Source of the DNA: an uncultured Oscillospiraceae bacterium
Lineage (GTDB): Bacteria > Bacillota > Clostridia > Oscillospirales > Ruminococcaceae
Assembly: GCA_964645785.1 (NCBI GenBank)
Contig: CAZYAV010000006.1
Span: 1,327 to 65,326 of the forward strand
Direction: 5' to 3'
DNA: 64,000 nt
Part shown: positions 29,926-45,624 of the stretch, piece by piece
Layout: each line of letters begins with the position of its first letter
Numbering within the stretch: the stretch's first letter is position 1
Translations under genes and position numbers: made by a program
Notes under the pieces: model-generated
Seen by the model: only the letters and a program-made list of their open reading frames with translations
Told to the model about the DNA's origin: nothing
Database searches by the model: none

Positions 29926-31260
29926 ATGGGATTGATTAAAGCGGCATTGGGTTCGGCAGGCGGCGTAATGGCCGAGCAGTGGAAGGAGTTCTTTTACTGC
30001 GAGGCGATGCCCGCGGACATTCTGGCCATCAAGGGGCAAAAGCGCACCTCCGGGCGCTCCAGCAACACCCGGGGCAGCGACAACATCATCACCAGCGGCT
30101 CGGTCATCGCCGTGGCCGACGGCCAGTGCATGATGATTGTGGAGCAGGGCAAGGTGGTGGAGCTGTGCGCCGAGCCGGGCGAGTTCACCTACGACGCCTC
30201 CACCGAGCCGAGCATCTTCAGCGGCAGCCTGGGCGACGGCATCAAGCAGATGTTCGGGCAGATCGGCAAGCGGTTCACCTTTGGCGGCGAACCGCCCAAG
30301 GATCAGCGGGTCTACTACTTCAACACCAAGGAGATTATCGGCAACAAGTACGGCACCGCTTCCCCGGTTCCGTTCCGGGTCATTGACCAGCGCGCGGGCA
30401 TTGATTTGGATATCTCCATCCGCTGTTTTGGCGAATACAGCTACAGGCTGGTGAACCCGCTGGCCTTTTATACCAACGTGTGCGGAAACATGACCGAATC
30501 CTACAACCGCGCGGAGATTGACAGCCAGCTAAAAAGCGAGCTGCTCACCGCGCTGCAGCCCGCTTTTGCGCGCATCAGCGAGATGGGCGTGCGCTATTCT
30601 GCCCTGCCCGGCCACACCGAGGAGCTGTCTCAGGCGCTCAAAGAGATTCTCTCCAGCAAGTGGCGGGACAACCGCGGCATCGAGATCGGTACCGTGGGGG
30701 TCAGCTCGGTAAAGGCCAACGAGGAAGACGAGCAGATGATCAAGGAGATGCAGCGCGAGGCAACCTATACCGACCCGACCCGCGCCGCCGGGGCGATTAC
30801 CCGCGCGCAGGCCGAGGCCATGAAGGCGGCGGCCTCCAACACCTCCACCGGGCCCGCAATGGCCTTTATGGGCATGGGCATGGCCGGCCAGATGGGCGGC
30901 ATGAACGCCCAGAACCTGTACGCGATGGGGCAGCAGCAACAGCAGATGCAGCCGCAGGCCGCCCCCGCCCCGGCACCCGCGGCACCCGCCGGGTGGACAT
31001 GTGCGTGCGGGCAGGGCGGCAACACGGGCAATTTCTGCCAGAGCTGCGGCAAGCCCAAGCCCGCGGACGCCGCCGGGTGGGTCTGCTCCTGCGGCGCGGT
31101 GAACAAGGGCAAATTCTGCGCCCAGTGCGGCAAGCCGAAGCCCGCCGGGGTGCCCCAGTACAAGTGCGATAAATGCGGCTGGGAGCCGGAAGACCCCGCC
31201 CATCCGCCCAAGTTCTGCCCCGAGTGCGGCGACTCCTTTGACGACGGAGATTTGCAGTGA
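29926..31260 (+). CDS. SPFH/band-7 domain protein with C-terminal triple zinc ribbon (COG4260; B. subtilis YdjI-like)
   Basis: 444 aa, RBS AAAGGAG. N-terminus MGLIKAALGSAGGVMAEQWKEFFYCEAM... is typical of the COG4260/YdjI family. Gln-rich linker, then three CxxC...CxxC units (CACG..CQSCG, CSCG..CAQCG, CDKCG..CPECG). Confidence 0.8.
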   Translation: MGLIKAALGSAGGVMAEQWKEFFYCEAMPADILAIKGQKRTSGRSSNTRGSDNIITSGSVIAVADGQCMMIVEQGKVVELCAEPGEFTYDASTEPSIFSGSLGDGIKQMFGQIGKRFTFGGEPPKDQRVYYFNTKEIIGNKYGTASPVPFRVIDQRAGIDLDISIRCFGEYSYRLVNPLAFYTNVCGNMTESYNRAEIDSQLKSELLTALQPAFARISEMGVRYSALPGHTEELSQALKEILSSKWRDNRGIEIGTVGVSSVKANEEDEQMIKEMQREATYTDPTRAAGAITRAQAEAMKAAASNTSTGPAMAFMGMGMAGQMGGMNAQNLYAMGQQQQQMQPQAAPAPAPAAPAGWTCACGQGGNTGNFCQSCGKPKPADAAGWVCSCGAVNKGKFCAQCGKPKPAGVPQYKCDKCGWEPEDPAHPPKFCPECGDSFDDGDLQ

Positions 31261-31844
31261 AGCGCTGGGTGCGGCGCATCCTTATTTTGGTGCTGATTTT
31301 GCTGGTGCTGCTGGCTGTCGGGGCGCTGCTTTTCAGAATCTACGTCAAAAACCGTATTATGGATAATGGAATGGAGTGGGGCGAACGGATGAACGGCGAA
31401 CCGGACTACCCTTTGACCGGGGCTCACACCTATGTGGATAACGGCGAGCTGTTCCCGGTTCTGCTGGGAACCTGGCAGAGCGACGACGGACGCTGGAGCG
31501 TGACCCTCACTCCCGTGCAGGACGACGGCTTTGATCTGCACATGGTTCTGACATGCGGCGGAGAAATGGCGATGGCGTGCGATCTCGACTATGTCTATTT
31601 CCTACCCCGCGGCTTGTACGACCCAACGGAGTTGCGGCCGAAAACATGGGAGCTCGGGCTCACCGACGGCAGCGGAAACAGTTTGGGCACCTTCATGGGG
31701 CTTTATTATGAGGAGGACTATGAGGAGAACGAGGGCGACAGGATCCTGACTCTGACGGTTTTACTCGAAAATGGCACATGGGAAACTGCCACGCTTATCA
31801 AACAAACTACCATACAGACGGAAAATTGTGAGGTGCAAACATGA
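31257..31844 (+). CDS. N-terminally membrane-anchored protein, unknown function
   Basis: 195 aa. GTG start overlaps the upstream stop. TM segment ILILVLILLVLLAVGALLF. The extracytoplasmic domain is paralogous to residues ~45-165 of the 37299..38738 product (HTYVDNGELFPVLLGTWQSDDGRW / HTYADNPALFAVLEGRWASADGYW; LDYVYFLP / LDFVYLLP). Confidence 0.7.
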   Translation: MKRWVRRILILVLILLVLLAVGALLFRIYVKNRIMDNGMEWGERMNGEPDYPLTGAHTYVDNGELFPVLLGTWQSDDGRWSVTLTPVQDDGFDLHMVLTCGGEMAMACDLDYVYFLPRGLYDPTELRPKTWELGLTDGSGNSLGTFMGLYYEEDYEENEGDRILTLTVLLENGTWETATLIKQTTIQTENCEVQT

Positions 31845-32254
31845 AAGGGCAGGGCTTTTTGAAAGTTACATCCATTCTTATGATTATCGGCGGCGTGATC
31901 TCCATCATCGTGAGCGTGATTGCCGTGGCCGGTGTGGGGGCGCTGGTGGCGCTGGGAGCCGGCGCTGTTTCGGGCATGGGGCTGCTGTATTGCAGCACCG
32001 GGCTTTTGGTGGTTGCGTCGGTCATCGAGCTGATTGCGGGCATCAAGGGGGTCGGTGCGTGCAGTGCACCAATCAAGGCGGCCGCCTGCGTCAAGTGGGG
32101 CGTTATCGTCGCCGCACTCAGCGTCATTTCCATGATTGTCGGCCTCATCGGCGGCAGTGATTTCAGCATCGTCAACCTTCTGCTGAACCTGATTCTGCCT
32201 GCGCTCTATGTGTACGGCGCAATTCAGATGAAAAACGGCGCGATGCCGCAGTAA
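31841..32254 (+). CDS. small integral membrane protein (about 4 TM)
   Basis: 137 aa, ATGA overlap with the upstream gene, Gly/Ala/Val/Ile-rich hydrophobic segments. Confidence 0.7.
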   Translation: MKGQGFLKVTSILMIIGGVISIIVSVIAVAGVGALVALGAGAVSGMGLLYCSTGLLVVASVIELIAGIKGVGACSAPIKAAACVKWGVIVAALSVISMIVGLIGGSDFSIVNLLLNLILPALYVYGAIQMKNGAMPQ

Positions 32255-32403: not shown

Positions 32404-32751
32404 ATGGCAACGATGAAAAAACTTACTAAGCTTCTGGTTCTGGCGATCGCTCTAATCCTGATTCTGTCCCTGACCGCCTGCGGCAGTAAAGACGCGCTCG
32501 CGGGCACCTGGAGCGCCGATCTCGGCGACGACGGCACGATCACCTGGACATTCGATGGCAGGGGCAAATGCACGATGGAGAACTTCTTCACAAAGCAGCA
32601 GGGGAGCTATACCATTGAGGGCGACCAGCTGACGGTGTTGCTCGAGCTCTGGGACGAGCCGAGCGTCTACACCTTCAACGTGGACGGGGACAGCTTCACC
32701 CTGGAGGAAAATTCGGGTCTCGGGATTTCGGGGACGTTTGCCAAGCAGTGA
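32404..32751 (+). CDS. small lipoprotein with lipocalin-like beta-rich domain
   Basis: 115 aa, lipobox LSLTACG (alternative start 32413). The GTWSAD...ITWTFDGRGK...YTIEGDQLTV...FTLEE pattern suggests a small beta-barrel domain. Confidence 0.7.
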   Translation: MATMKKLTKLLVLAIALILILSLTACGSKDALAGTWSADLGDDGTITWTFDGRGKCTMENFFTKQQGSYTIEGDQLTVLLELWDEPSVYTFNVDGDSFTLEENSGLGISGTFAKQ

Positions 32752-32821
32752 CGCGGCGCGGCCGCGTCGACAAGCACACACCGGCGTCCCGCGCGGGGCG
32801 TTGATCTGAGGAGGTTGTGAA

Positions 32822-34213
32822 ATGAAAAAATTTTTGTCCGTTTTGTTGACGGTTGTACTGGTTCTGTCCCTTGCCGCTTGCGGCAAGGGAACGGGGGACG
32901 CGGGCTTTTATGTCCTGACCTCCCTAAGCGGGGATGGCATGACCCTCGACAAGGACACCCTCGAGCTGCTCGGCCTGTACGGCACGATGTATCTCGAGCT
33001 GCGGGAGGACGGAACCGGCGTTTTGAGCATGGGCGACGGCGACGATTTGGCGCTCACCTGGAAGAAGGGCGTCATCACCGCCGACGGCGAGAGCTCGAAG
33101 TACACCCTCAAGGGAGACGAGCTGACCATCGAGATCGACGGAGCTGCCATGGTTTTCACCCGCGAGGACAAGAGTGCGTTCTCCTCTACCTCGGGCGGCT
33201 CCAGCAATTTGGGAGGTCTCGGAAACCTCGGCAGCGACGACACCCTGCTCGACTTCTGGAATGGCGAGTGGTACGGCTGGTGGGCGATGCTCGGCGCAGA
33301 CGGCGAGTATGAGGAGCTGAGCGGCCAGTGGTGGGATACCTGCGGTGTCATCGACATCGGCGACGACTATACCGGCACTGTCGAGCTTTGGGATGAGGAC
33401 GGCGACCCCTACAACCTCCTCTGCTCGGTGGACGTCAGCCTGAGCGGCTCGGGCACCAGCCAATACGGCACGGTGATGTCCGAGGACGGATGGTTCGGCG
33501 ACTGCCTCGTCGGGCACGCCGACTGGATTGTCGACCCCGGCCTTGCGGATTACGACAACATGATCTGGATCGACGGCTCCTATGAGGACGACTATGGCAG
33601 CTTTACCATCTCGATCTATTTGAAGCCGTGGGGCGAGCGCTGGGACGACGTGGAGGCGGCGCAGCCCCAGGATGTGCCCTATTATTACTACGACTGGTAC
33701 CTGCCCCTCATCGAGGCGGGCGAGCCCATGCCCGATGTGATCGGCGACATGTCCTCCGTCACGACCCCCTCCGGCGGCTTCAGCGGCGGCCTCGACGACG
33801 ACGGCCCGGGCGCCGTGAGCGGCATGATCCCCATTGGGGACAGCGGCGTGCTCGGCGTGATTTTGCCGGACGGCTTCTCCTACAACGACGGCTGGTACTG
33901 CTACTCCGATTCGGATTTCGAGACGGCCATCTGGCTGGCGGATGCCAAGGTCTATAAGGATCAGGCCGAGCTCGAGCTCTACATGACGGATAAAGCCGTA
34001 ACCGAAACGGCAACCCTCGGCGGCCGCACCGTCTATATCACCGAGGATCCCGACAGCTTCTACGGCGCCGAGACCGTCTATTACGTAGTTCTCGACGGCC
34101 TCGGGGACTGCTATGCGTGCAGCATCAAGGTAAGCTCCAACGTGGGGGATATGGCCGCCACCCAGACCCCGGCCATCCGGGATATGATTGCGAGCATCGC
34201 CGAGATGGGCTGA
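32822..34213 (+). CDS. lipoprotein, unknown function (463 aa, acidic, Trp/Tyr/Asp/Gly-rich)
   Basis: RBS GAGGAGG, lipobox LSLAACG. The N-terminal module GFYVLTSLSGDGMTLDKDTLELLGLYGTMYLELREDGTG is shared with the N-terminus of the 40349..41221 product. Confidence 0.75.
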   Translation: MKKFLSVLLTVVLVLSLAACGKGTGDAGFYVLTSLSGDGMTLDKDTLELLGLYGTMYLELREDGTGVLSMGDGDDLALTWKKGVITADGESSKYTLKGDELTIEIDGAAMVFTREDKSAFSSTSGGSSNLGGLGNLGSDDTLLDFWNGEWYGWWAMLGADGEYEELSGQWWDTCGVIDIGDDYTGTVELWDEDGDPYNLLCSVDVSLSGSGTSQYGTVMSEDGWFGDCLVGHADWIVDPGLADYDNMIWIDGSYEDDYGSFTISIYLKPWGERWDDVEAAQPQDVPYYYYDWYLPLIEAGEPMPDVIGDMSSVTTPSGGFSGGLDDDGPGAVSGMIPIGDSGVLGVILPDGFSYNDGWYCYSDSDFETAIWLADAKVYKDQAELELYMTDKAVTETATLGGRTVYITEDPDSFYGAETVYYVVLDGLGDCYACSIKVSSNVGDMAATQTPAIRDMIASIAEMG

Positions 34214-34343
34214 TTGCCCCGCATCAAGGCGGCTCCCCCCTCGCGGGGAAAAGAGAATTTGATCTTGCACGAACAGGGGAGGCCCGTCCGGCAGCGGGCG
34301 GGTCTCTCTTTTAGAAACCTGAAACCGAGAAAGAGGTGATTTC

Positions 34344-35486
34344 ATGGCAGTGCAGGCAACCAACTACCAGTGCCCCGCCTGCACCGGCCCGCTGCACTTT
34401 GTGGGAGCCTCCGGCAAGCTGGAATGCGACTACTGCGGCCAGAGCTTTGAGGTGGCGGAGATCGAGGCGCTGTATGCCGGGAAGGACAGCGCGGCGGCCG
34501 CGGCACAGCAGGCCGCGCAGCAAAAAGCGGAAGCTGCCGCCGAGGATGGGTTCGACACCTCCGCGCTTCAGCAGGACTGGGGCGCGGACGGCGCGGGCAT
34601 GAAAGCCTACAACTGCCCCTCCTGCGGCGCGCAGCTGCTCTGCGACGCGACCACCGCCGCCACCAGCTGCCCTTACTGCGGCAACAACACCATCCTGCCC
34701 GGGCAGTTCGGCGGCACGCTGAAGCCGGAGCTTATCATCCCGTTCAAGCTGGACAAAACGGCCGCCGTCGCGGCGCTGAAAAAGCACTACAGCAAAAAGC
34801 TCTTCCTGCCCAGGGCCTTTTCGGCCGCCAACCATCTGGAGGAGGTCAAGGGGCTCTATGTCCCCTTCTGGCTGTTTGACGCCGGGGCGCAGGCCGATTG
34901 CCGGTTTCATGCCACCCGCTCTCACGCCCGCCGCGAGGGGGATTACCGCGTGGTCGTCACCAATCACTTTGACGTGCGGCGCTGCGGGTCGATGGAGTTT
35001 CAGCGCGTGCCGGTGGACGGCTCCAAAAAAATGCCGGACGACTACATGGATTCCATCGAGCCGTTCGACTACAACGAACTGAAACCTTTTTCCACCGCTT
35101 ATCTGCCGGGGTACCTTGCAGACAGATACGACGTCTCGGCAGAGGAGAGTGTGCCGCGGGTCGAAGGGCGCTGCCGCGGCTCGGCCGCCGAGCAGATGCG
35201 CCGGGACGTGATCGGCTATGAAACGGTGACCCTCGCGAGCAGCTCGGTTCAACTGCAGCGGGGCAAGGTGCACTACGCCCTGCTGCCGGTGTGGACACTG
35301 CTTACCAAATGGAAGGACAGGGACTATCTCTTTATGATGAACGGGCAAACCGGCAGGATGGTGGGCGACCTGCCCGTATCCAAGGCGAAGTTCTGGGGCA
35401 TTGCTGCCGCCCTGTCCGCGGTGTTGAGCGGTCTGCTCATCTGGGGCGGCGTGGGGCTTGCCATTGCGCAGGCGCTGTTTGGCTGA
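34344..35486 (+). CDS. double zinc-ribbon protein with C-terminal TM anchor (B. subtilis YdjG-like architecture)
   Basis: 380 aa. YQCPACTGPL...CDYCG and YNCPSCGAQL...CPYCG ribbons. C-terminal hydrophobic segment FWGIAAALSAVLSGLLIWGGVGLAIA. Confidence 0.7.
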   Translation: MAVQATNYQCPACTGPLHFVGASGKLECDYCGQSFEVAEIEALYAGKDSAAAAAQQAAQQKAEAAAEDGFDTSALQQDWGADGAGMKAYNCPSCGAQLLCDATTAATSCPYCGNNTILPGQFGGTLKPELIIPFKLDKTAAVAALKKHYSKKLFLPRAFSAANHLEEVKGLYVPFWLFDAGAQADCRFHATRSHARREGDYRVVVTNHFDVRRCGSMEFQRVPVDGSKKMPDDYMDSIEPFDYNELKPFSTAYLPGYLADRYDVSAEESVPRVEGRCRGSAAEQMRRDVIGYETVTLASSSVQLQRGKVHYALLPVWTLLTKWKDRDYLFMMNGQTGRMVGDLPVSKAKFWGIAAALSAVLSGLLIWGGVGLAIAQALFG

Positions 35487-35501: not shown

Positions 35502-36320
35502 ATGAAAAAGCGAATCGGCCTCTTTTTAACCGTATTGGCTCTGGCGCTCTGCCTCTTCCCCGCCCTGCCCGTGCGGGCGGCCGGCTTTGAGGAGGCGCAG
35601 CTCGGCTTTGTCACCGATGCCGCCGGGCTTCTCTCCGGCGACGCGTATAGCCGGCTGGAGCAGCAGGCGCAGGACATCTCCACCCGGTATTCGTGCGGCG
35701 TGTATATCATCACGGTGGACGATTTTACCGATTACACCAATGAAAGCACGCCGTATGAGGCCGCAAAGGCCTTCTACCGGGACTACTCTTTGGGCTGCGG
35801 CCTCGACAGAAGCGGCGTTCTGCTGCTGCTCTCGATGGCGGAGCGGGACTATGCCCTCATCGCCTACGGCTACGGCAACACCGCCTTTACCGACTACGGC
35901 AAGGATAAGCTCTCGGACGAGTTTCTCGACGACTTCGGGGACGACGACTGGTACGGCGGCTTTCAGGATTATCTGACAAAATGCGATTCCATGCTCGAGG
36001 CCGCCCGGGACGGTCACCCGCTGGATGTGGGCAGCAACCCGATGATCGCCTTTGCGGGGATTGCCATCTCGCTGCTGCTGGGCTGCGGAGGGGCGTTCGC
36101 CTTCTGCTGGTGGCTGAAGGAGCGGCAGATGAAATCGGTGGCCGCAAAGACGGAGGCGGACACCTATCTCTCGGCCGGGAGTGTGGAAATCACCAACCGG
36201 GAGGATCGCTTTACCCACACCACCGAGGTCAGGACAGAGATTGAAAAAGCCTCCGGCGGCGGGTCGGGCGGCACCACCATCGACAGCGACGGTTTCTCGG
36301 GAAAGAGCGGAAAATTTTAA
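35502..36320 (+). CDS. TPM-domain protein with signal peptide and C-terminal TM plus Gly-rich tail (YdjH-like architecture)
   Basis: 272 aa. GFVTDAAGLLS...YIITVDDF...GVLLLLSMAERDYALIAYG is the TPM_phosphatase signature. Ends in TM IAFAGIAISLLLGCGGAFAF and GGGSGG. Confidence 0.8.
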   Translation: MKKRIGLFLTVLALALCLFPALPVRAAGFEEAQLGFVTDAAGLLSGDAYSRLEQQAQDISTRYSCGVYIITVDDFTDYTNESTPYEAAKAFYRDYSLGCGLDRSGVLLLLSMAERDYALIAYGYGNTAFTDYGKDKLSDEFLDDFGDDDWYGGFQDYLTKCDSMLEAARDGHPLDVGSNPMIAFAGIAISLLLGCGGAFAFCWWLKERQMKSVAAKTEADTYLSAGSVEITNREDRFTHTTEVRTEIEKASGGGSGGTTIDSDGFSGKSGKF

Positions 36321-36344: not shown

Positions 36345-37061
36345 ATGAAACGAACAACAAAAATTGCGGTCAGCCTTTTGCTTGCCCTTTGCATGGCGCT
36401 GGCCGGCTGCGGCAAAAAGAACCCGGGCGCGGGCAACGCCGGCTCGGGCTCGGGCAACACCACCCAGACTTCCGGTACAACCGTGCAGGAGCCTGCCATG
36501 CCGGAGCCGGAAGCCGTGCTCGACCCCGCCGAAATCAAATGGAACTATATGCCCGACGGCAGCGACTATATCTACTGGTACCCGGACGGCGACTTTACGT
36601 CGGACTACTATATTATATTTGAAGACTATTTCCTGAGCATCGACGACGGCGGGGAGCGGAGCACCTACAGCACCGCGATAGAAAACCGTCATCTCTACAT
36701 CAGCGACGCGGACGGCCCCGAGGTGGACTTTGTCTTTCTCGACAACCTGACCTGCTATGACCTGGTCAACGGGCAGTGGTATATGAGCGCCGACTATAAC
36801 GAGGCCTTCCCCTCCCTCACCGCAGCCACCTTCTATACAGAGGATGACGACACGTGGAATATCACCTTTTATGAGGACGGCACCTTCCACCGCGAGTTTA
36901 ACGGTCACATTCAAGAGGGTCAGTGGTGGTTCGAGGATGCCTACAGGGTTCGCTACGAAAGTGACGGCGATGAAATGAGCCTTTATCTCTATTATGCCGA
37001 CGACAGCTGGGAGGTCGTGGCCATAGAGCTTGTCGGCGATATGTATTACCCGGCGGCCTAA
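36345..37061 (+). CDS. lipoprotein, unknown function (238 aa)
   Basis: RBS AGGAGG, lipobox ALAGCG, acidic Tyr/Asp/Trp-rich mature part. Confidence 0.7.
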   Translation: MKRTTKIAVSLLLALCMALAGCGKKNPGAGNAGSGSGNTTQTSGTTVQEPAMPEPEAVLDPAEIKWNYMPDGSDYIYWYPDGDFTSDYYIIFEDYFLSIDDGGERSTYSTAIENRHLYISDADGPEVDFVFLDNLTCYDLVNGQWYMSADYNEAFPSLTAATFYTEDDDTWNITFYEDGTFHREFNGHIQEGQWWFEDAYRVRYESDGDEMSLYLYYADDSWEVVAIELVGDMYYPAA

Positions 37062-37298: not shown

Positions 37299-38738
37299 AT
37301 GAAAAAACGGACATCAGGGCTGTTTTTCGCCGTGTGCCTGGCTGTGTGCCCTGTCTTTTTGCTGGCCGCCTGCGGCTCGTCCCGGGCGGACGGGGGCACG
37401 GGCGGGGACGACATGACGGACGGTATGCTGGACGGCGACCACACCTATGCGGATAATCCGGCGCTGTTTGCGGTGCTGGAGGGTCGCTGGGCGAGCGCCG
37501 ACGGCTACTGGCTGCTGACCATTTCGGGGGATCCCTTTGACGTGCGCATGACCCTGTCGATGGGCGGGGAGCAGGTTGGGGAATGCAGTCTGGATTTTGT
37601 CTATCTGCTCCCGGACTCCAGCCCCAACAGGGAAACCGATCTGAATCCGGAGGCGGCACAGCTCACAAGCCACGACGGAAGCATTCTGGGCGAAGTGGTC
37701 GGCCTATACCACAGGGTGGGCGAGGACGACGGCGCCCTGCACCTGACCCTTACGCTGGCCGGCGACCCGGCATCCGTCACCCTCTTTAAAGAGGCGGACG
37801 CCCGCGTGTCTGCTGCCGGCAGGCAGGCGGCGCTGGAAGCGCTGCGCGCAGAGTTGGCGTATTACCCCGACGCGGCGCTGGCCATGGCCTATTTGGGCGA
37901 GCCGGGGACGCGCGACCCCGCCGCGCTTGCCGCGTATCTTGAGGAGCACTTCCCGCACATTCTCGAGGTCGCCCCCTTTCTGCTCGACATCCCCGAAGAA
38001 AACATCATCGGCGACCCCGGCGAGGATGAGGATTCGGCGCTTTACTGCGTCATCCCGCGGGACGAGGCCACCTCGCTGTCGGTCAACCTTGTCGCGTGGG
38101 ACGCCGATGACGCCTGGGAGAACGCCTGGTCGTCCGTGACCGACATCCTCTACCGCAGCGAATATGCCGAGCCGCTGTTTGTGTTCGTGGGCGCAGACCC
38201 GCATGTCGGTATGCCGGATATCCAGCTTATCGCTGTGGCCGGTAACGGCGCACAGGTGGAGTATTATCCGAACATTTACCCGGAAACCCACGCCCTCAAC
38301 TGCCCCGTCGACGAGGGGTATACTCCCCTTGTCTGCGACCTTGCAATTCTGGCCGGCGCGGGCTGCGGCGATGACGGCTGGTATCCCCCCACCGATCAGG
38401 GGCTGCTGGATACCACCTGGTGGGTGAGCGGCACCGGCTGGTACATGACCCTGCGCGGCGGCGACGCCGATCTCCCGTATTACACCGGCTATGCGGAGAT
38501 TTATACGCACCCCCGGGGCATCACGGAGTATTCCGGCGTCTGGGAGATGGACGGCGGGTGCCTGTATCTCCAGCTCACGGACGGGCTCGGCAACGTCACA
38601 GAGGGGCGGTTCCCGGTGCTTGTCTCCCCTTCCGGGGAACAGCTTGCGATGCAGGCAGATCCACAAAGCGGCGCCCTGCCCGATTTTTTAGGGATGGCGG
38701 GTGCGGATGCCATGAATTTGACCCTTATCTATGAGTAA
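37299..38738 (+). CDS. lipoprotein, unknown function (479 aa)
   Basis: RBS AAAGGAGGAG, lipobox LLAACG. The N-terminal domain is paralogous to the 31257..31844 product. Confidence 0.75.
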   Translation: MKKRTSGLFFAVCLAVCPVFLLAACGSSRADGGTGGDDMTDGMLDGDHTYADNPALFAVLEGRWASADGYWLLTISGDPFDVRMTLSMGGEQVGECSLDFVYLLPDSSPNRETDLNPEAAQLTSHDGSILGEVVGLYHRVGEDDGALHLTLTLAGDPASVTLFKEADARVSAAGRQAALEALRAELAYYPDAALAMAYLGEPGTRDPAALAAYLEEHFPHILEVAPFLLDIPEENIIGDPGEDEDSALYCVIPRDEATSLSVNLVAWDADDAWENAWSSVTDILYRSEYAEPLFVFVGADPHVGMPDIQLIAVAGNGAQVEYYPNIYPETHALNCPVDEGYTPLVCDLAILAGAGCGDDGWYPPTDQGLLDTTWWVSGTGWYMTLRGGDADLPYYTGYAEIYTHPRGITEYSGVWEMDGGCLYLQLTDGLGNVTEGRFPVLVSPSGEQLAMQADPQSGALPDFLGMAGADAMNLTLIYE

Positions 38739-38822: not shown

Positions 38823-40289
38823 ATGGGCAACTATAAAAAGCTGGTATTGCTGCATTCCAACGATATGCACGGCGATTTTCTCACCGAGCAGATTGACGAA
38901 AAGCTGGTGGGCGGCGTCAGTATGCTCTCAGGCTATGTGGATAAGGTGCGCCGGGAAGAGCCCAACACCCTATACTGCATCGCGGGGGACATGTTCCGCG
39001 GCTCGGTTATCGACTCGGAGTATCAGGGACTGAGCACCATCGAAATCATGAACGCCCTGTCCCCCGACGTGGTGACCCTCGGCAACCACGAGACCGACTA
39101 CGGCATCGCCCACCTGCTGTTTTTGGAAAAATGCGCGAAATTCCCCATCATCAACGCCAACCTGTTCATCCGCACCAACGGCGCCCGGCTGTTTCAGCCC
39201 CATATCATCCTCAAGGTGGACGGGATGAAGATCCTGTTCATCGGGGTGCTGACCGAGGAGGTGCTCGCCCAGACCAGCACGGACAAGCTGATCGGCTCCT
39301 TTGTGGGCATCAATGAGGCGGCCGAGGAGGTGGGGCGCATCTGCAACGCCTACAACGCCATCGACATCGACTTTACCGTGCTGCTGACCCATATCGGCTT
39401 TGAGGAGGACAAAAAGCTGGCCGCGCAGCTCGACCCGGCGTGGGGGGTGGATGTCATCATCGGCGGGCATTCCCACACCTTCCTTGACGAGCCGGCCAGG
39501 GTCAACGATATTCTGATTGTGCAGGCAGGCACCGGCACCGACCAGATCGGCCGCTTTGACATCACGGTGGACACCGACAACAACTGTGTAGACAGCTTCC
39601 GCTGGCAAACCATTCCCATCGACGACACCCACTGCCCCCGCGACCCGGTGATGAACAAGCTGATTGGCGAGTACAAGCAGCGCACCGACACAAAGTACAG
39701 CCGCTTGATCACCCGCTTCCGCCGGGAGCTGACCCACCCCGCCCGCACCCAGGAGACCGAGCTGGGCGACCTGTTTGCCGATATTCTGCGCGACAGTCTG
39801 GGGCTGGACATCATGCTGCTGGGCTCCGGCTCGATACGCAACACCCGCCTGGGGCCGCTGGTGCAGTTCGCTGACCTGGTGGAGTGCTTCCCCTACGACG
39901 ACTCGGTCACCATGCTCACCGTCACCGGGGAGCAGCTGCGGCGGATGCTGAAGTATATGCTGCGGGACGAGGTCTGGCAGGGAGCGCACTGCGAGTTCTA
40001 CCAGCTCTCCAGAGGGCTGCGGGCGGTCTACAGCCGCAAGACCCACGAGTTTTCCGAGTTTTCCTTTGAGGGCGAGCCGGTGCGCGACGAAAGGCTTTAC
40101 ACGGTGGGCTTACAGGCCTTTCACTACAACAACATGGAAAAGAATCTGGCGCTCAGCCCCAAGGAGGCGGCGGAGAACAAAAAGCCCCGCGTGGTGACAA
40201 CCTCCTGCCGCGAGGTGCTGGACGAGTATCTGTCCGACCATCAGCATCTGGATCAGACCGTCGAGGGGCGGCTTATCCTGCTCGACTGA
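38823..40289 (+). CDS. bifunctional metallophosphatase / 5'-nucleotidase family protein, no recognisable signal peptide
   Basis: 488 aa. Metallophosphoesterase motifs HSNDMHGD, GDMFRG, GNHETD, plus a C-terminal 5'-nucleotidase-like half. Confidence 0.85.
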   Translation: MGNYKKLVLLHSNDMHGDFLTEQIDEKLVGGVSMLSGYVDKVRREEPNTLYCIAGDMFRGSVIDSEYQGLSTIEIMNALSPDVVTLGNHETDYGIAHLLFLEKCAKFPIINANLFIRTNGARLFQPHIILKVDGMKILFIGVLTEEVLAQTSTDKLIGSFVGINEAAEEVGRICNAYNAIDIDFTVLLTHIGFEEDKKLAAQLDPAWGVDVIIGGHSHTFLDEPARVNDILIVQAGTGTDQIGRFDITVDTDNNCVDSFRWQTIPIDDTHCPRDPVMNKLIGEYKQRTDTKYSRLITRFRRELTHPARTQETELGDLFADILRDSLGLDIMLLGSGSIRNTRLGPLVQFADLVECFPYDDSVTMLTVTGEQLRRMLKYMLRDEVWQGAHCEFYQLSRGLRAVYSRKTHEFSEFSFEGEPVRDERLYTVGLQAFHYNNMEKNLALSPKEAAENKKPRVVTTSCREVLDEYLSDHQHLDQTVEGRLILLD

Positions 40290-40348
40290 CCGCCGCCATG
40301 CTTCCCCGCGCCCGGGTGCCGCTGTGTGCGTTTATCGGAGGTACCGCA

Positions 40349-41221
40349 ATGAAACACAAGGCCTTTATGCTGGTTCCTGTGCTGGGCATGGCGCTTGCGC
40401 TCAGCCTGTCCATGGTGGGATGCGGCAGGCAAAAAAGCCATGCGGGCTTCTATCTCCTGCGCGCCTTAACCCTCGAAGGCGAATCCTATGACGAGGCGAT
40501 GCTGCGGGATTGCGGGCTGTACGGGGCATCGTATCTGATGCTCGAGGAAGACGGCGCCGGCAGATTTCATGGCAGTCCGCCCCGCAGGGAGCCCAGCCCG
40601 CCCCGACATGACGAAAAAGGAGGCTTTTCTTTGGACATTTTTGACCAGCTGAAAAATAAGGCTCAATCGGCAGCCCGCTCTGCCGTACAGCCCGCGCGCG
40701 CTGCCGCGGCCGGCTTTGGCAGCCAGCGGGAGACCTTCACCTTTGCCGCCCTGCCCGGGAGCGCGGCCGAGCTGCGGGTGCTGCCCGAGGCGGCGATGGA
40801 TACCCCCTTTCAGACGGCAGCGCTTGCCGTGTGCGCCCTGTGCGCCTTTTCCGCCGACCAGAGCGCCGGCGTTGAGATGCTCAACTTCCTGCGCGGCCCG
40901 CGGCCGATGAACGGGCAGGACATCTCCTTCGTCAGGGATCGTTTCCGGGGGAACCGCGCTTACATCATTTTCTCCCATTTTGCGGGCTCCATGCCGGAAA
41001 GCGGCTACACCCCCACTCTGCCCTACACTTTGGAGGTGTTCTCCGACGCCCGCTCCGGCGATCAGGAGAACATGGCGCGGCTCTTTGTCCGCTCCGGCGG
41101 CGCAGACAGCCCCCGCCCCGTCACCCTGCGCCTGGCCAAGGACGGCAAATGGTATCTGTGGGAATATTCCAGTCTCCTGCTGGACATCCGGCCGCCCGCG
41201 GCAAGCGACCCCTGGGCATAA
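40349..41221 (+). CDS. lipoprotein, tandem paralogue 1 (unknown C-terminal ~165-aa domain)
   Basis: Subset of ORF 40298..41221. ATG at 40349, lipobox SMVGCG. The C-terminal domain (...LNFLRGPRPMNGQDISFVRDRFRG...RLFVRSGGADSPRPVTLRLAKDGKWYLWEYSS) is shared with the next gene. Confidence 0.7.
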   Translation: MKHKAFMLVPVLGMALALSLSMVGCGRQKSHAGFYLLRALTLEGESYDEAMLRDCGLYGASYLMLEEDGAGRFHGSPPRREPSPPRHDEKGGFSLDIFDQLKNKAQSAARSAVQPARAAAAGFGSQRETFTFAALPGSAAELRVLPEAAMDTPFQTAALAVCALCAFSADQSAGVEMLNFLRGPRPMNGQDISFVRDRFRGNRAYIIFSHFAGSMPESGYTPTLPYTLEVFSDARSGDQENMARLFVRSGGADSPRPVTLRLAKDGKWYLWEYSSLLLDIRPPAASDPWA

Positions 41222-41359: not shown

Positions 41360-42175
41360 TTGAAAAAAAGCTATCTTGTGCTGCTTGTCCTCGCGCTTTT
41401 GGCTGCCCTGCTGTGCAGCTGCGCGCAGCAAAGCGGGAGCGCCGGGCAGACTGCGCAGCAGCAGAGCGCCGCGCCCGCCGATGAACCGCCGGCCTCCGCA
41501 GGCGACCCTGTACCGGATGCGCCGCCGGACGACCCGGAGGAAAGCGACCGCTTTGCGTCCTCCGCGCCGTCCGAAGAAGGCGGCGAGCCGGCGGAGAGTG
41601 CCGGCGAATTCTTTGCCGAAGGCCACCAGCCTGCCGGCAGCGTCAACGTCGAGGAGATGCTCACCATCGAAGAGGGCAGCAATGGCACGACCTACATCTT
41701 TTCCGCCCTGCCCCAAAACGTAGAGGAATTAAAGGCGCTGTGGGCGCACTGGGGCTCCGCCCCGGAGCATACGGCGGCGTTCAGCATCGCGGCGTTCTGC
41801 CGGTATCCCCAGTCCCGCGAGGACAGCCTTGCCATGATCGACCTGCTGCGCGGGCCCGACCCGATGAGCGAGGCCGACCGGCAGTTTATCGCCGACCGCT
41901 TCCGGGATAAGGACTATGTGCCGCGCTCCTACTTTGCGGGTGCTGTGCCGGACAACGACTATACCCCCGCCGAGCCATATACCCTGACGGTGACGGCGGA
42001 CGCGCACTCGTACGATACGGAAAATACTGCGCGCCTGTTTGTCCAATCCGGCGGCGCGGACAGCCCCCGCCCCATCACCCTGCGCCTTGCCAAGGACGGA
42101 AACTGGTATCTGTGGGAGTACTCCAGCATTCTGGTGGGCATTCGTCTGCCCGCGTCCGAGGATCCGTGGGTTTGA
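41360..42175 (+). CDS. lipoprotein, tandem paralogue 2
   Basis: Subset of ORF 41243..42175. The TTG at 41360 follows AAAGGAGGGAAG. Lipobox LLCSCA, Pro/Glu/Ala-rich linker. C-terminal domain ...IDLLRGPDPMSEADRQFIADRFRD...RLFVQSGGADSPRPITLRLAKDGNWYLWEYSS. Confidence 0.7.
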   Translation: MKKSYLVLLVLALLAALLCSCAQQSGSAGQTAQQQSAAPADEPPASAGDPVPDAPPDDPEESDRFASSAPSEEGGEPAESAGEFFAEGHQPAGSVNVEEMLTIEEGSNGTTYIFSALPQNVEELKALWAHWGSAPEHTAAFSIAAFCRYPQSREDSLAMIDLLRGPDPMSEADRQFIADRFRDKDYVPRSYFAGAVPDNDYTPAEPYTLTVTADAHSYDTENTARLFVQSGGADSPRPITLRLAKDGNWYLWEYSSILVGIRLPASEDPWV

Positions 42176-42204
42176 CAGGATAAATTGGAGAGGAGCTGAC
42201 AGCT

Positions 42205-43770
42205 TTGATGAAAAAATGCATAACCCTGCTGCTGTCCATGCTGCTGCTTGCCGGTCTCTTTGGCTGCGGGCGGCAGGTGCAGCCCGGGGATGACAGCGCG
42301 CCGTCCGCGCCGCAGGATACAAGCCGCCCCTTGCCCGGGCAGGCGGAAGAGGTCACTGTGCTGGAACAGGTGGAGAAGGGCACGCTTACCGACAGCGAGG
42401 GCTATGAGTATGAGTATTCCTACTGCCTGCCCAGCATCGACGCGGACACCCCCGGCGCGCGCGCCATCAACGAGGAAATCAATGAAATCTACGGCGTTGT
42501 AATGGAGGAAAGCCTTGCGTGGATCCGCCGCGGGGAACTGCCCTTATATAGCGAGATCACCTATGATGCATACCGCAGCGGCGGCATCCTGAGCCTTGTC
42601 CTCAAGGCCGCCTACGGCTATGACTCTTACGGCAATTACAGCGTCTACCACTACGATACGGCCAGCGGCACCCGGCTGCAAAACAAGGATATTATCGAGC
42701 GGCTGGGCTTTTCTGAAGAGGAAGTCCTCACCGCACTGCGCCGCGCGGCGGCACAGATGTATGACAGCCTCTACGCCGACTACTGGCACATTATCGAGGA
42801 TACGCAATCGGGCGGCTTTCAGCAGATGCGCAGCGAGACGCTCTCGCAGCGGCGCCTGAATCTGGATGTGCCCCTCTACATGGACGGCGAAGAGCTGTGC
42901 GCCGTCGTCCGCATCAGCAACGACATGAGCGGGGATTTGCACAGCACCCTCACATTAAATCTGACCCCCGCCAGCAAAACGGCGGTCGATAACAGGTTTG
43001 ATTTTGTGGACATCACCTGCCAGAACGGGGAGCTCTCTCTTTGCTTTCAAAAAACGCCATCGAGCGGGGAATTTTTAGAAAGCTCCGCCATCGAATGCGG
43101 AAAAGATTACCCGGTGCATGGGCTTTACAGCAGCTATACCAGGGTCTGCACCGCCCTTGCCGGTTCGGCCGAAACGCCATGGCTCTTTTTGCTCACGAGC
43201 GAGGGTCGGGTGGAATATGTTGACCTGAGCGCGGGGCTTGCAACCGGGTACTTCTGTGCTGGCGGGCCGCTGCTTGGACTCGACATCTGGCCGATCGTTG
43301 ATTTTACCGAAGAGCTGGACTACAGCGGCTTTCCCACGGTGTACGGCGTTGGCCAGGAGGGGCAAACGGTCGATCTGCTGGCGCTCATAGAGGCCGAGAG
43401 GCACATTCTGCCGGCCACATTCATGAGCGGCTGGGATACCCCATCCGCCGGGAATCCGGCCGGGCATGCCAATCTTCAGCTCTGGCAGGGTGGCAACGGC
43501 GACAACGCCCGGCTTGTCTATGATTTCCGGCAGCCGGTGGAAGAGCTGTACGGCGTTTTCCGGTATTTCGGCATGAACGAGCAGGGCATGGTATACGCCT
43601 ATCAGCTGTGGCCGGACGGCGAGAGCCGGAGCATACTTGGGGTGGCCGCCCTCGAGCGGCACGACACCCCGCGGGATTCCCTTTTGTGCGTGACCGAGCT
43701 GAGCGGGTCACCCCTTTTGGGCAATAAACCCGGCGATGTCACTGAATTGACGGCAGGTGCAGCTGGCTAA
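42205..43770 (+). CDS. lipoprotein, unknown function (521 aa); N-terminal part faintly DUF4163/DUF3298 (RsiV/PdaC)-like
   Basis: Lipobox LFGCG. The YEYEYSYCLPSIDADTPGARAINEEINEIY pattern resembles DUF4163-type modules, a low-confidence family call. Confidence 0.7.
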   Translation: MMKKCITLLLSMLLLAGLFGCGRQVQPGDDSAPSAPQDTSRPLPGQAEEVTVLEQVEKGTLTDSEGYEYEYSYCLPSIDADTPGARAINEEINEIYGVVMEESLAWIRRGELPLYSEITYDAYRSGGILSLVLKAAYGYDSYGNYSVYHYDTASGTRLQNKDIIERLGFSEEEVLTALRRAAAQMYDSLYADYWHIIEDTQSGGFQQMRSETLSQRRLNLDVPLYMDGEELCAVVRISNDMSGDLHSTLTLNLTPASKTAVDNRFDFVDITCQNGELSLCFQKTPSSGEFLESSAIECGKDYPVHGLYSSYTRVCTALAGSAETPWLFLLTSEGRVEYVDLSAGLATGYFCAGGPLLGLDIWPIVDFTEELDYSGFPTVYGVGQEGQTVDLLALIEAERHILPATFMSGWDTPSAGNPAGHANLQLWQGGNGDNARLVYDFRQPVEELYGVFRYFGMNEQGMVYAYQLWPDGESRSILGVAALERHDTPRDSLLCVTELSGSPLLGNKPGDVTELTAGAAG

Positions 43771-43815
43771 AGCTGCCGCCCGACCCATAAAACAACCACA
43801 AGGGAGGAAACAACA

Positions 43816-44850
43816 ATGGGACTGTTTGGAAATCTGTTTGAAAAGAAGCAATGCTCCATCTGCGGGGGCGACATCGGCCTGATGGGCAACCGCAAGCTGG
43901 AGGACGGTAACTGCTGCAAGGATTGCGCGGCAAAGCTCTCGCCGTGGTTCAGCGAACGGCGGCAGAGCACCGTGGCGGACATTAAGGCGCAGCTGGAATA
44001 CCGCGAGGCCAACCGGGAAAAGGTGGCGGCATTCCACGCCACCCGCACGCTGGGGGATGACACCAAGGTGATTTTGGACGAGGACGCGGGTCTCTTTATG
44101 GTCACCTCCGCCCGCAACTGGCAAAGCGCCAACCCCGATGTGCTGGCCTTTTCCGATGTGACGGGTTGCAATTTGGACATCGAGGAAGACCGAACCGAGA
44201 TCGAGTATAAGGACGCGGAGGGCAAGCGCCAAAGCTTCAACCCCAAGCGCTACGCCTATTCCTACGATTTTTATATCGTCATCCAGGTCAACAATCCGTA
44301 CTTCAACGAAATCCGCTTCAAGCTGAATGATTCCAGCGTGGACAACGACGAGGAGACCCTGCTGGACAGCCCCACGGCCATGCCGCGCTCCCGCTCCGGC
44401 GCAGCCCGTCCCGGCGCAGTCCGCCCTGATGCGGCGCGTCCTGGCGCGGCGCGTCCCGGTGCGGCTCGACCTGATGCGGCGCGCCCCGGTGCTGTTCGTC
44501 CCGGTGCAGCGCGTCCTGATGCGGCGCGTCCCGGTACAGCGCGTCCCGGCACGGCGCGCCCCGGCGCGGAACGGCCGATGCCCGGCCGCACCCCCATGGG
44601 CGGCGGGGTGCCGGGCGGCATTCCCGTCTCCAACGCCGACGAGGTGCGCGCCAGCCTGGAGTATCAGCAGTATGAGCAGATGGGACAGGAGATACGCGAC
44701 GCTCTGCTGCAGGTGCGGCAGGATGTGCGGGACAGCGCGGCGGCGGCAAACGCACCCAAAATGGCGGTGACCTGCCCCTTCTGCGGCGCCACCACAACGC
44801 CGGACGCTTCCGGCTGCTGCGAATTCTGCGGCGGAGCCATCGGCGGCTGA
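43816..44850 (+). CDS. DUF4428-like zinc-ribbon protein with internal AARPG/AARPD pentapeptide tract and C-terminal zinc ribbon
   Basis: 344 aa, RBS GGGAGG. N-terminus CSICGGDIGLMGNRKLEDGNCCKDCAAKLSPWF. C-terminus CPFCGATTTPDASGCCEFCGG. Confidence 0.75.
   Translation: MGLFGNLFEKKQCSICGGDIGLMGNRKLEDGNCCKDCAAKLSPWFSERRQSTVADIKAQLEYREANREKVAAFHATRTLGDDTKVILDEDAGLFMVTSARNWQSANPDVLAFSDVTGCNLDIEEDRTEIEYKDAEGKRQSFNPKRYAYSYDFYIVIQVNNPYFNEIRFKLNDSSVDNDEETLLDSPTAMPRSRSGAARPGAVRPDAARPGAARPGAARPDAARPGAVRPGAARPDAARPGTARPGTARPGAERPMPGRTPMGGGVPGGIPVSNADEVRASLEYQQYEQMGQEIRDALLQVRQDVRDSAAAANAPKMAVTCPFCGATTTPDASGCCEFCGGAIGG
44398..44577 (+). repeat. 12 tandem 15-bp units encoding (G/D)(A/T)(A/V/E)RP pentapeptides
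   Basis: GAARP GAVRP DAARP GAARP GAARP DAARP GAVRP GAARP DAARP GTARP GTARP GAERP, read directly from the ORF (residues 195-254). Confidence 0.9.
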
Positions 44851-44952
44851 GCGTCTGCGTCGCCGATACAGGGGTTCGTCGTTCCCCGGCAGCATCCCTG
44901 CCCGGGGAACGGCAAATTCCGTCCGTTATGCAAAGCAAGGGAGGAAAAGGCC

Positions 44953-45624
44953 TTGAAGGATCATCCTAGATCGGGAGCGTTGGGCGTATGGAGCCTTCTG
45001 GGGCTTGCGCTGCTCTATTTCATCGCGCGGCATTTCTTCCCGTCGCTTTCCACCCTGCTTCTCGTCCTTGCGGCGGTTGTGGCCTTTGGCATTGTCGCGC
45101 TGGTGGCGCTGGTCGTTGTCTTCGCCTTCCGCAAGCCCAAGCAGCGCGGTGAGCCGGCGGGCAGCGGCCAGTCAACAGTTCTTCAACAGGGTCGGGCTGA
45201 CCTTCTCACGCTGCGCGGGCTTCTCCTGCGCGTAAAAGACGGGCAGGTGCGCGCTCTGGGCGAAACTGTCTGCCGCGAAATCGAGCAGATTCTCCGCGTC
45301 CTGAAGGAGCGTCCGGAGGATATTCCTCTGGTGCGGCAGCTGTTTCCGTTCTATCTGCCCGCCCTCATCGACATTCTGCGGCAGTTGATTCGCCTGGAAC
45401 AGAGCGGCGTATCGGATTCGGAGCTCACCGAAAAGGTCATCACCTGCCTGCGCGATATGCAGGCCGTGCTGGAAAAGCTGCACGCCGGTCTTTTGAGCAA
45501 CGGCAAGCTGGAGCTTGCCGCGGAGATGGAGGCTTTGGCGCAGTTCTGCCGCCGGGAGGGTCTGCTTGCAGACTCCGCGCATCCGGCAGAAGGCGGCGGG
45601 TCGGATATCACCCCGTCCCCATAG
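44953..45624 (+). CDS. XpaC-like (5-bromo-4-chloroindolyl phosphate hydrolysis protein family) membrane protein
   Basis: 223 aa. TTG start 8 nt after GGGAGG. Two N-terminal TM segments, then a helical domain (LRVLKERPEDIPLVRQLFPFYLPALIDILRQL...) as in the XpaC family. Confidence 0.6.
   Translation: MKDHPRSGALGVWSLLGLALLYFIARHFFPSLSTLLLVLAAVVAFGIVALVALVVVFAFRKPKQRGEPAGSGQSTVLQQGRADLLTLRGLLLRVKDGQVRALGETVCREIEQILRVLKERPEDIPLVRQLFPFYLPALIDILRQLIRLEQSGVSDSELTEKVITCLRDMQAVLEKLHAGLLSNGKLELAAEMEALAQFCRREGLLADSAHPAEGGGSDITPSP

Follow-up and report, generated by a model that had tools for sequence, protein, structure and literature searches.

An SPFH, Zn-ribbon and TPM gene triad without pspA, beside a two-component system and variable lipoprotein genes, in an uncultured Oscillospiraceae bacterium

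A co-directional array of envelope genes

We examined a 64,000-nucleotide stretch of DNA from an uncultured Oscillospiraceae bacterium (GenBank assembly GCA_964645785.1, contig CAZYAV010000006.1, positions 1,327 to 65,326), hereafter the window, which carries an array of genes for an SPFH protein, a Zn-ribbon protein, a TPM-domain membrane protein and a collection of lipoproteins and other products. The array spans 29926-45624 and consists of 15 co-directional open reading frames (ORFs) on the plus strand, all within a region of high G+C content at third codon positions (GC3), and the rest of the window is encoded mostly on the minus strand. An initial annotation of this DNA had counted 16 ORFs; we find 15, and inspection of the larger intergenic gaps within these coordinates revealed no credible additional gene. 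Array proteins are designated o1 to o15, two genes of an upstream sensor module are designated u1 and u2, and L-numbers denote related loci in other genomes. The features of the array, where TM stands for transmembrane, are as follows.

29926-31260, plus strand: o1, SPFH protein, SamI/YdjI-like (Pfam Band_7_1, PF13421, E=5e-18)
31257-31844, plus strand: o2, signal-anchored 195-aa protein with one N-terminal TM segment; homologues in 2-3 loci
31841-32254, plus strand: o3, small four-TM protein (four hydrophobic segments; no Pfam match)
32404-32751, plus strand: o4, DUF5640 lipoprotein (PF18692, E=5e-22; lipobox LTAC); found in 5 loci
32822-34213, plus strand: o5, lipoprotein with a Trp-rich domain (lipobox LAAC; no Pfam match)
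34276-34309, plus strand: putative terminator in the o5-o6 gap (15-bp G+C-rich stem, 4-nt loop, then UUUU)
34344-35486, plus strand: o6, SamG/YdjG-like (two Zn ribbons at the N-terminus, then a 230-aa conserved domain, then a TM anchor at the C-terminus)
35502-36320, plus strand: o7, SamH/YdjH-like TPM membrane protein (TPM, PF04536, E=2e-21)
36345-37061, plus strand: o8, lipoprotein (lipobox LAGC) with a weak lipocalin-like hint (Lipocalin_4, E=0.035)
37299-38738, plus strand: o9, lipoprotein (lipobox LAAC) with an o2-like N-terminal domain and a family-less C-terminal region
38823-40289, plus strand: o10, 5'-nucleotidase/metallophosphoesterase-family enzyme (Metallophos and 5_nucleotid_C)
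40298-41221, plus strand: o11, DUF6935 protein (PF22043, E=2e-53), with an upstream in-frame ATG at 40349 and a TTG at 40631
41360-42175, plus strand: o12, lipoprotein form of DUF6935 (PF22043, E=2.5e-54; ribosome-binding site (RBS) and TTG start at 41360; lipobox LCSC)
42205-43770, plus strand: o13, two-domain lipoprotein (invariant Cys21; alpha/beta N-domain and all-beta C-domain)
43816-44850, plus strand: o14, DUF4428 protein (PF14471, E=2.5e-15; no TM segment)
44953-45624, plus strand: o15, XpaC-like two-TM protein (Halogen_Hydrol/XpaC, PF10112, E=2e-11), preceded by a 102-nt gap
45714-45746, plus strand: intrinsic terminator at the array end (hairpin 45714-45741, 12-bp stem, then TTTTT)

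Shine-Dalgarno-like motifs are present at every start, and the stop/start overlaps at 31257 and 31841 measure 4 nt each, both as the initial annotation had reported. Its description of the remaining gaps as short holds in part, and does not hold for five gaps of at least 100 nt (149, 130, 237, 138 and 102 nt). All of its domain assignments are upheld by Pfam (SPFH, TPM, 5'-nucleotidase, DUF4428 and XpaC), and the double Zn ribbon with a TM segment that it proposed for o6 is likewise borne out.

A conserved triad of SPFH, Zn-ribbon and TPM genes

In Bacillus subtilis, YdjG carries two Zn ribbons, a globular domain and a TM segment, YdjH is a TPM membrane protein, and the two recruit YdjI, which links the phage-shock protein PspA to the membrane. 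A 2026 preprint renames these proteins SamG, SamH and SamI, and describes SamGH as a sensor complex restrained by SamI, with PspA being dispensable. The architectures of o6, o7 and o1 match those of SamG, SamH and SamI, respectively, and the genes are encoded together. The o1 protein is soluble, lacking any TM segment, and its Gln/Pro/Ala low-complexity linker leads into three C-terminal Zn ribbons (CxxC motifs at residues 371, 398, 414 and 431, plus two CxC motifs). The four CxxC pairs of o6 (residues 10, 28, 91 and 109) are invariant across the aligned homologues, and its only hydrophobic segment is C-terminal. Its middle domain may have an NTF2/YpeB-like fold. More than 7900 homologous clusters of o6 are found at E<1e-5. 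The protein matches no Pfam family, and a profile sequence search of the PDB with o6 returned no solved structure. The layout of o7 comprises a signal peptide, an external TPM domain, a TM segment and a Gly/Ser-rich tail (hydrophobic segments at residues 1-19 and 176-194). As had been claimed, the triad is split in the window, where four genes separate o1 from o6 and o7.

To place the array among its relatives, a pattern scan was made of one genome per species (185,579 species), which gave at least 600 matching stretches. The best 80 loci were kept; they span Oscillospiraceae, Faecalibacterium, Agathobaculum, Lachnospiraceae, Erysipelotrichaceae, Treponema and Collinsella, and no Bacillus is among them. 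In total, 85 non-redundant related loci were compared, and 32 of these are fully flanked, having at least 8 kb on both sides. Two analyses, tblastn of all window proteins and de novo clustering of all ORFs with a GC3 filter, agree on the tiers of conservation described below. The counts in the 32 fully flanked loci are as follows.

SPFH gene, beside the o6 homologue: 29
TPM gene, after the o6 homologue: 28
DUF4428: 10
Two-component system: 8
DUF6935: 7
o5: 5
o9: 3
o13: 3
o8: 2
o2: 2
5'-nucleotidase: 2
XpaC: 0

The SPFH, Zn-ribbon and TPM genes form a near-universal core that is usually a compact three-gene operon and that is shared by hundreds of species. Most loci are bare operons of this kind in unrelated contexts, as in F. 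prausnitzii, Agathobaculum and Treponema. These data support the view of the three genes as a conserved triad with the architecture of YdjI/G/H (SamI/G/H). The second tier, comprising DUF4428, DUF6935, the o5-type lipoprotein and the sensor module, is present in roughly a quarter to a third of the loci, and its carriers are spread over Oscillospiraceae, other Clostridia and Collinsella. The third tier (o2, o4, o8, o9 and o13) occurs in close relatives only. The synteny expected of a single system exists across genera, and even phyla, for DUF4428, DUF6935 and the o5-type lipoprotein, but for the third-tier genes it does not extend past close relatives. The association of the triad with second-tier genes persists through three gene orientations and two phyla. 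By these comparisons, the window represents an expanded sub-type in which genes are inserted between the SPFH and Zn-ribbon genes and after the TPM gene. Its closest collinear relative, with identical gene order, is locus L008 from Faecalibacterium sp. UBA7177.

The initial annotation had also reported that the window contains no PspA-type gene. This was confirmed by phmmer with E. coli PspA as the query at E<=10, which returned no hit among six-frame ORFs from the window and from 86 loci, and precomputed Pfam annotation of the neighbours contains no PspA_IM30.

A divergent two-component sensor module

The most informative conserved partner of the array lies outside the coordinates covered by the initial annotation. 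It is a sensor module (24964-29580) that is transcribed divergently from o1.

27946-29580, minus strand: u1, 7TM receptor of the HisKA_7TM type (PF16927, E=5e-8; seven hydrophobic segments)
26660-27991, minus strand: u2, DesK/LiaS/VraS-class (HisKA_3-type) histidine kinase with three N-terminal TM segments
25878-26531, minus strand: NarL/LuxR-type response regulator (Response_reg, E=8e-17; GerE, E=4e-15)
24964-25347, minus strand: degenerate stand-alone receiver (pseudo-receiver) of 127 aa, in which Glu replaces the phospho-accepting Asp
29581-29925, no strand: divergent intergenic region of 345 bp, from the sensor operon to o1

The C-terminal domain of u1 is divergent and has no recognizable kinase motifs, and its profile finds no solved kinase. 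This gene is linked to the triad in 12 of the 85 loci, in co-directional, divergent and convergent arrangements. A profile built from 10 members of the u2 family matches DesK (E=9e-17) as well as VraS and DevS, and both the phospho-accepting His276 and Asn366 are invariant. The pseudo-receiver aligns with the receiver domain of the regulators (hhalign 97.5%, E=5e-12), and its family is represented in 13 loci, where it adjoins SPFH or DUF6935 genes. Translation confirmed the coordinates of the response regulator and of the pseudo-receiver. All four sensor genes accompany the triad in other Oscillospiraceae, being co-directional in L001-L004, L019, L085, L088 and L089 and divergent in L013 and L017, and the same four genes are convergent in Collinsella. 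We infer that the 345-bp region between the sensor operon and o1 is a shared control region.

The Collinsella/Coriobacteriaceae loci (L077-L084) combine DUF4428, a longer Zn-ribbon protein (440 aa), SPFH, an o5-like lipoprotein and the convergent two-component system. In the window, the two-component genes are followed at 21813-24948 (minus strand) by genes for an SBP_bac_8 lipoprotein and for a membrane-spanning regulator of the LuxR/GerE type (598 aa). This pair also adjoins the cluster in L005, L009 and L085/L086, and may constitute a further conserved signalling pair.

The DUF4428 and DUF6935 partners

From N- to C-terminus, the DUF4428 protein o14 consists of a Zn ribbon, a beta-rich domain that is conserved, a linker of PGAARP-type repeats, a helix and a second Zn ribbon. 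Identity across genera is 62-80%, with both Zn ribbons conserved around the variable Pro/Gly/Ala/Arg repeat linker. DUF4428 is present in 28 of the 85 loci, including those of Collinsella. When three look-ups were started from DUF4428 homologues (66-80% identity), every one landed in a triad neighborhood, with the order HK7TM, HK, RR, receiver-like protein, Band_7_1, DUF4428, lipoproteins, Zn-ribbon, TPM and DUF6935 (HK, histidine kinase; RR, response regulator). The middle domain of o14 may be PH-like. An AlphaFold2 model of o14 was poor (pLDDT 50), and PDB sequence searches with profiles of o14, o13 and u1 gave nothing meaningful. The only literature context found for DUF4428 is that of SNIPE nuclease homologues, where it can take the N-terminal place otherwise filled by a TM or PH domain, which hints at a role in membrane targeting.

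DUF6935 is found in 19 of the 85 loci, and 12 of 16 DUF6935 proteins in related loci are cytoplasmic. The window carries two adjacent genes of this family, and o12 is a lipoprotein form. The case of o11 is more complex. The part that starts at ATG 40349 encodes a lipoprotein N-terminus with 47% identity over 47 aa to the N-terminus of o5. Inside the gene, an RBS, AAAGGAGG, lies 7 nt before the in-frame TTG at 40631, and this TTG matches the start of cytoplasmic o11 orthologues (MSIFDQ, no signal peptide). Judged from these sequence features, the cytoplasmic o11 product likely starts at TTG 40631, and the lipoprotein part may be a fused relic. The fusion of an o5-like fragment with a DUF6935 gene suggests recombination or domain shuffling among the lipoprotein genes of the locus.

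Lipoproteins and other inserted genes

At least eight lipobox proteins had been proposed for the array. We count six firm examples (o4, o5, o8, o9, o12 and o13) in addition to the ambiguous o11. The accompanying claim that these lipoproteins match no characterized family stands, since the only matches are to DUF5640 and, in relatives, to DUF5067, or there is no match at all. Pfam and NCBIfam assign no family to o2, o5, o8, o9 or o13, and the NCBIfam scan returned nothing apart from the 5'-nucleotidase. Likewise, Pfam searches at E<=10 with isolated sub-domains of o14, o6, u1, o13 and o5, and with o2, o8 and o3, yielded nothing significant.

Several of these proteins can nevertheless be related to one another. 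Most hhalign matches among the lipoprotein families involve the signal peptides, and real shared domains are limited to o2 with o9, o5 with a Collinsella lipoprotein, and o4 with cl20. The o2 protein and the N-terminal domain of o9 are paralogues (35% identity over 184 aa; hhalign 97%), and the N-terminal domain of o5 is held in common with the Collinsella lipoprotein (hhalign 96%). Members of the o5 family are present in 18 loci, and a DUF5067 domain, absent from the window copy, is found in 9 of 14 members. The o9 family occurs in 13 loci, often after TPM, and none of its 14 members matches Pfam. All 7 loci with o8 are from close relatives. The small membrane protein o3 is present in 6 loci and is mostly found immediately upstream of DUF4428.

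The lipoprotein o13 is syntenic in close relatives only. A confident AlphaFold2 model based on six sequences (pLDDT 80, pTM 0.79) gave only weak beta-propeller-like matches in a Foldseek search of the PDB (TM-score <0.2). A profile search of 1.84 billion representatives found 2189 relatives, many of them by way of the N-domain alone. The same N-domain forms the C-terminal extracellular part of a BlaR1/peptidase M56 plus DUF4825 sensor protein (P0390, residues 714-899), and reaches five tandem copies in other proteins. These sequence relationships suggest that it may be an extracellular binding domain. One o13 relative has a sub-threshold PdaC match (PF13739); the idea of an RsiV/PdaC-like N-domain was a guess backed only by that match, and we set it aside.

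Lipoproteins and cytoplasmic proteins differ in their rates of divergence. Compared with their L008 counterparts, the cytoplasmic parts (o6, o10, o11 and o14) are 73-89% identical, and the lipoproteins (o5, o8, o9 and o13) 45-53%. When syntenic orthologues from both L008 and L001 are considered, the extracytoplasmic lipoproteins are 36-53% identical and the cytoplasmic proteins 63-89%. The lipoproteins diverge about twice as fast as the cytoplasmic parts, a pattern that fits diversifying pressure on surface components. In relatives, genes for SLH-domain surface proteins with Big_2, Cleaved_Adhesin or Flg_new_2 domains lie inside or beside the cluster, and the window array has none. Their positions are given below.

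L001, 19422-21152: SLH protein
L004, 20138-21134: SLH protein
L088, 1729-7075: SLH protein
L089, 6496-7968: SLH protein

Two other genes of the array have few counterparts. The enzyme o10 is UshA-like (E=5e-38), although it falls far below the curated cut-off of NCBIfam, and its lack of a signal peptide indicates that it is cytoplasmic. Homologues with 67-89% identity are present in 3 of the 85 loci, and o10 is probably an occasional neighbor rather than a core part. The XpaC-like o15 has a homologue in 1 of the 85 loci and in none of the 32 that are fully flanked, and is probably an unrelated neighbor. In B. subtilis, the XpaC-family gene is adjacent to a TelA-family gene (yaaN-xpaC). No TelA family was detected in the array or in the scanned flanking ORFs, among which the short ORFs just downstream were partly covered. 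The only other triad-adjacent XpaC-like gene is in L032 (5-10821), where it is flanked by two inverted copies of the SPFH, Zn-ribbon and TPM genes.

Surrounding DNA

The window has a G+C content of about 61% and includes tmRNA, signal recognition particle (SRP) RNA and tRNA genes, indicating that it is chromosomal. An Rfam scan found no RNA element within the array, and the remaining mid-sized ORFs of the window are ordinary (TetR, AzlC, RecR, PTAC and UDG). The array had been said to end in a repeat-borne terminator, and correctly so: the hairpin and its T-run are real, and the palindrome CCGGAGCAAAG-N4-CTTTGCTCCGG occurs five times in the window against zero expected. Near-identical palindromic hairpins are located at 19747-19772, 20624-20649, 20889-20914, 45715-45740 and 52747-52772, the last of which adjoins the tmRNA gene (52775-53121). 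This palindrome family probably represents bidirectional terminators that resemble repetitive extragenic palindromic (REP) elements.

At the downstream border of the array, the stretch 45800-48250 has a G+C fraction of about 0.50 and no convincing gene save a C-terminally truncated LacI-family ORF (46312-46905, minus strand), and looks like decayed or recently acquired DNA. In other genomes, a relaxase gene is located just upstream of the sensor genes in L001-L003 (1-1280), and resolvase/recombinase genes are located just downstream of the cluster in L085/L086 (L085 17460-19022). The cluster may adjoin mobile elements in some genomes.

A proposed SamGHI-like module with an adjacent two-component system

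We consider it reasonably probable that the locus is a PspA-independent, SamGHI-like module that has acquired DUF4428 and DUF6935 proteins as cytoplasmic partners, that is functionally tied to a DesK/LiaS-class two-component system, and that includes lipoproteins as variable cargo or input, with o10 and o15 probably being neighbors. Beyond the homology and synteny described above, the formation of a complex, the direction of signalling and regulation from the 345-bp region are elements of a model built by analogy with B. subtilis, which would operate as follows. First, o6 and o7 would assemble into a sensor complex in the membrane, in which the TPM domain is turned towards the wall. Second, o1 would be recruited to this complex and would oligomerize there as a scaffold or brake, with o14 serving as an extra sub-membrane adaptor. 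Third, the adjacent two-component system would either control the array from the 345-bp region or receive its signal. The proteins o2, o3, o4, o8, o9 and o13 are lineage-specific, fast-diverging envelope proteins whose genes have gathered at the junction between the SPFH and Zn-ribbon genes and after the TPM gene, and that would function as variable cargo or clients rather than as fixed subunits.

The initial annotation had proposed one expanded envelope system built from the whole array. The conserved triad, the absence of PspA and several syntenic partners are retained from that proposal, but joint membership of all genes is not, given that most of the lipoproteins are confined to close relatives and that o10 occurs in 3 and o15 in 1 of the 85 loci. 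Moreover, the term 'novel system' overstated the case, because the core is already described in B. subtilis. What is known is the SPFH/Zn-ribbon/TPM core, and what is new is a form of it that is PspA-less, expanded and linked to a two-component system.

A more ambitious version of this proposal, which we advance only tentatively, is that in gut Clostridia and Coriobacteriia about ten genes make up a conserved signalling unit, of which the SamGHI-like sensor/scaffold is one arm. Its members may include the 7TM receptor, the DesK/LiaS-class kinase, the NarL-type regulator, the pseudo-receiver, SPFH, DUF4428, Zn-ribbon, TPM and DUF6935 proteins. The role of the SPFH/Zn-ribbon/TPM complex would be to gate the two-component system or to feed it, and the hyper-variable lipoproteins would be exchangeable extracellular inputs that dock on the TPM domain or on the 7TM receptor. 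If this is true, such a unit would supply the missing transcriptional output route for SamGH in Bacillus.

Several observations count against the SamGHI-like module as we have formulated it. About two thirds of the triad loci lack both the two-component system and DUF4428, and these parts are therefore not obligatory. No operator motif is common to the loci, in that the regions upstream of the SPFH or 7TM-receptor genes share only G+C-rich k-mers. No TPM gene is detectable in the Collinsella loci, where TPM is either dispensable or substituted by another protein. The search for PspA used a single query and covered 64 kb of this genome, and PspA may be encoded elsewhere. In addition, the apparent kinship of o1, o6 and o7 with B. 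subtilis YdjGHI is drawn only from Pfam families, architecture and gene order. Terminator-like hairpins are present inside the array; besides the putative terminator at 34276-34309, there is a strong hairpin inside the 102-nt gap before o15, and weaker ones occur elsewhere. Together with the long gaps, these internal hairpins argue against one obligatory transcript. Finally, DUF4428 and the two-component system occur together in 7 of the fully flanked loci, singly in 3 and 1, and are both missing from 21 (Fisher p=2.6e-4). This co-occurrence speaks for the module, but the test ignores phylogeny, and one of the seven loci with both, L089, was fetched through DUF4428.

Some of the same evidence would be expected if the array were a mosaic, in which only the SPFH, Zn-ribbon and TPM proteins cooperate and everything else is co-located through vertical inheritance and local tolerance of insertions, on separate transcripts and with no shared function. 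Most triad loci are indeed bare three-gene operons in unrelated contexts, the genes between and after the core vary by genus, the XpaC and 5'-nucleotidase genes are rare, and the five long gaps, the hairpin at 34276-34309 and the weaker hairpins are consistent with separate transcripts. However, the triad is repeatedly accompanied by DUF4428, DUF6935, the receiver-like protein and the two-component system, despite rearrangements, in Oscillospiraceae, Anaerotignum, Collinsella and two metagenome-assembled genomes (MAGs), one of Tissierellaceae and one of Spirochaetaceae, and searches that started from DUF4428 always returned the triad. Such recurrence across lineages is hard to explain by inheritance alone, and we regard this explanation as unlikely, if still the strongest competitor.

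Less probable still is an envelope-protein island, wherein the SamGHI-like proteins and the two-component system would keep watch on, or help with, exporting and anchoring co-encoded surface proteins, and the lipoproteins would be clients or members of the regulon rather than parts of a machine. The array encodes no export or anchoring factor (signal peptidase, Lgt or sortase), and bare triads occur without any such cargo. What speaks for the island is purely contextual: SLH, Big_2, beta-helix and adhesin-like surface proteins in or beside the clusters of relatives, lipoproteins that are variable and fast-evolving, and an o13 N-domain that doubles as the external domain of a BlaR1-type sensor. 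To this can be added the report of the 2026 preprint that loss of SamI blocks BslA secretion in B. subtilis.

Membrane-associated anti-phage defense, with SPFH and Zn-ribbon proteins that sense phage entry and variable lipoproteins that act as decoys or receptors, is very improbable: none of 10 proteins matches PADLOC-DB 2.0 models at E<=1e-3, a scan of 2.9 million viral contigs turned up no relatives of o6, effector domains such as a nuclease, protease or NTPase are absent, and the core, with its at least 600 matching stretches, seems to be inherited vertically and to sit in housekeeping contexts, all of which outweighs the SNIPE association of DUF4428, the rapid divergence of the surface lipoproteins and the naming of PspA systems after phage stress. 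The viral contig scan and PADLOC being negative, the phage-borne and known-defense readings were rejected.

To our knowledge, work on SamGHI/YdjGHI has so far been confined to B. subtilis, where the proteins were studied as accessories of PspA. Anaerobic gut bacteria very commonly carry the triad (examples are Faecalibacterium, Flavonifractor, Intestinimonas, Agathobaculum and Collinsella), and it is never beside pspA in these organisms, which fits the proposal of SamGHI as an autonomous membrane-stress sensor. The recurrent sub-type that is physically tied to a LiaS/DesK-class two-component system, DUF4428 and DUF6935 offers testable candidates for the wiring of an SPFH-based sensor to gene expression. 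It also places several domains of unknown function, among them the uncharacterized families DUF4428 and DUF6935, in a functional context for the first time, and draws attention to a set of surface lipoproteins that evolve fast in abundant commensals of the human gut.

Comparison with known envelope-stress systems

The Bacillus pspA-ydjGHI operon is controlled by sigma-W and has pspA as its first gene. In contrast, pspA is absent from the operon and from the surrounding 10 kb in 86 loci, and the locus examined here is linked to a two-component system. The genes here run in the order SPFH, Zn-ribbon, TPM, as opposed to Zn-ribbon, TPM, SPFH in B. subtilis. The window also departs from the Bacillus operon in that four genes set the SPFH gene apart from the Zn-ribbon and TPM genes and in that o1 carries three Zn ribbons. 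Furthermore, DUF4428 and DUF6935 are conserved partners that the Bacillus operon does not have.

The resemblance to the E. coli PspABC/PspF system is one of general logic alone, wherein a membrane sensor pair and a peripheral regulatory or effector protein answer envelope stress. There is no homologous component, as PspA, PspB, PspC and PspF are all absent. Among SPFH scaffolds such as HflK/C-FtsH, QmcA-YbbJ/NfeD and FloA/FloT, the array differs in that o1 has no membrane anchor of its own and belongs to PF13421 rather than to PF01145 (Band_7), and in that neither an NfeD nor a protease partner is encoded. Like these systems, it pairs an SPFH protein with dedicated membrane partners in what are presumed to be oligomeric sub-membrane assemblies.

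The last comparison is with LiaFSR-LiaIH. Unlike that system, the array and its flanking genes include no LiaF/Toastrack (DUF4097), LiaI or LiaH (PspA), and they add a 7TM receptor-like protein and a pseudo-receiver; u2, with three TM segments and a cytoplasmic linker domain, is not a minimal LiaS sensor. As in the Lia system, however, a HisKA_3 kinase of the DesK/LiaS/VraS class and a NarL-type regulator are encoded beside genes for sub-membrane stress proteins. The SamI preprint draws a parallel with Lia as well, in the form of a 'brake' protein that restrains a membrane sensor.

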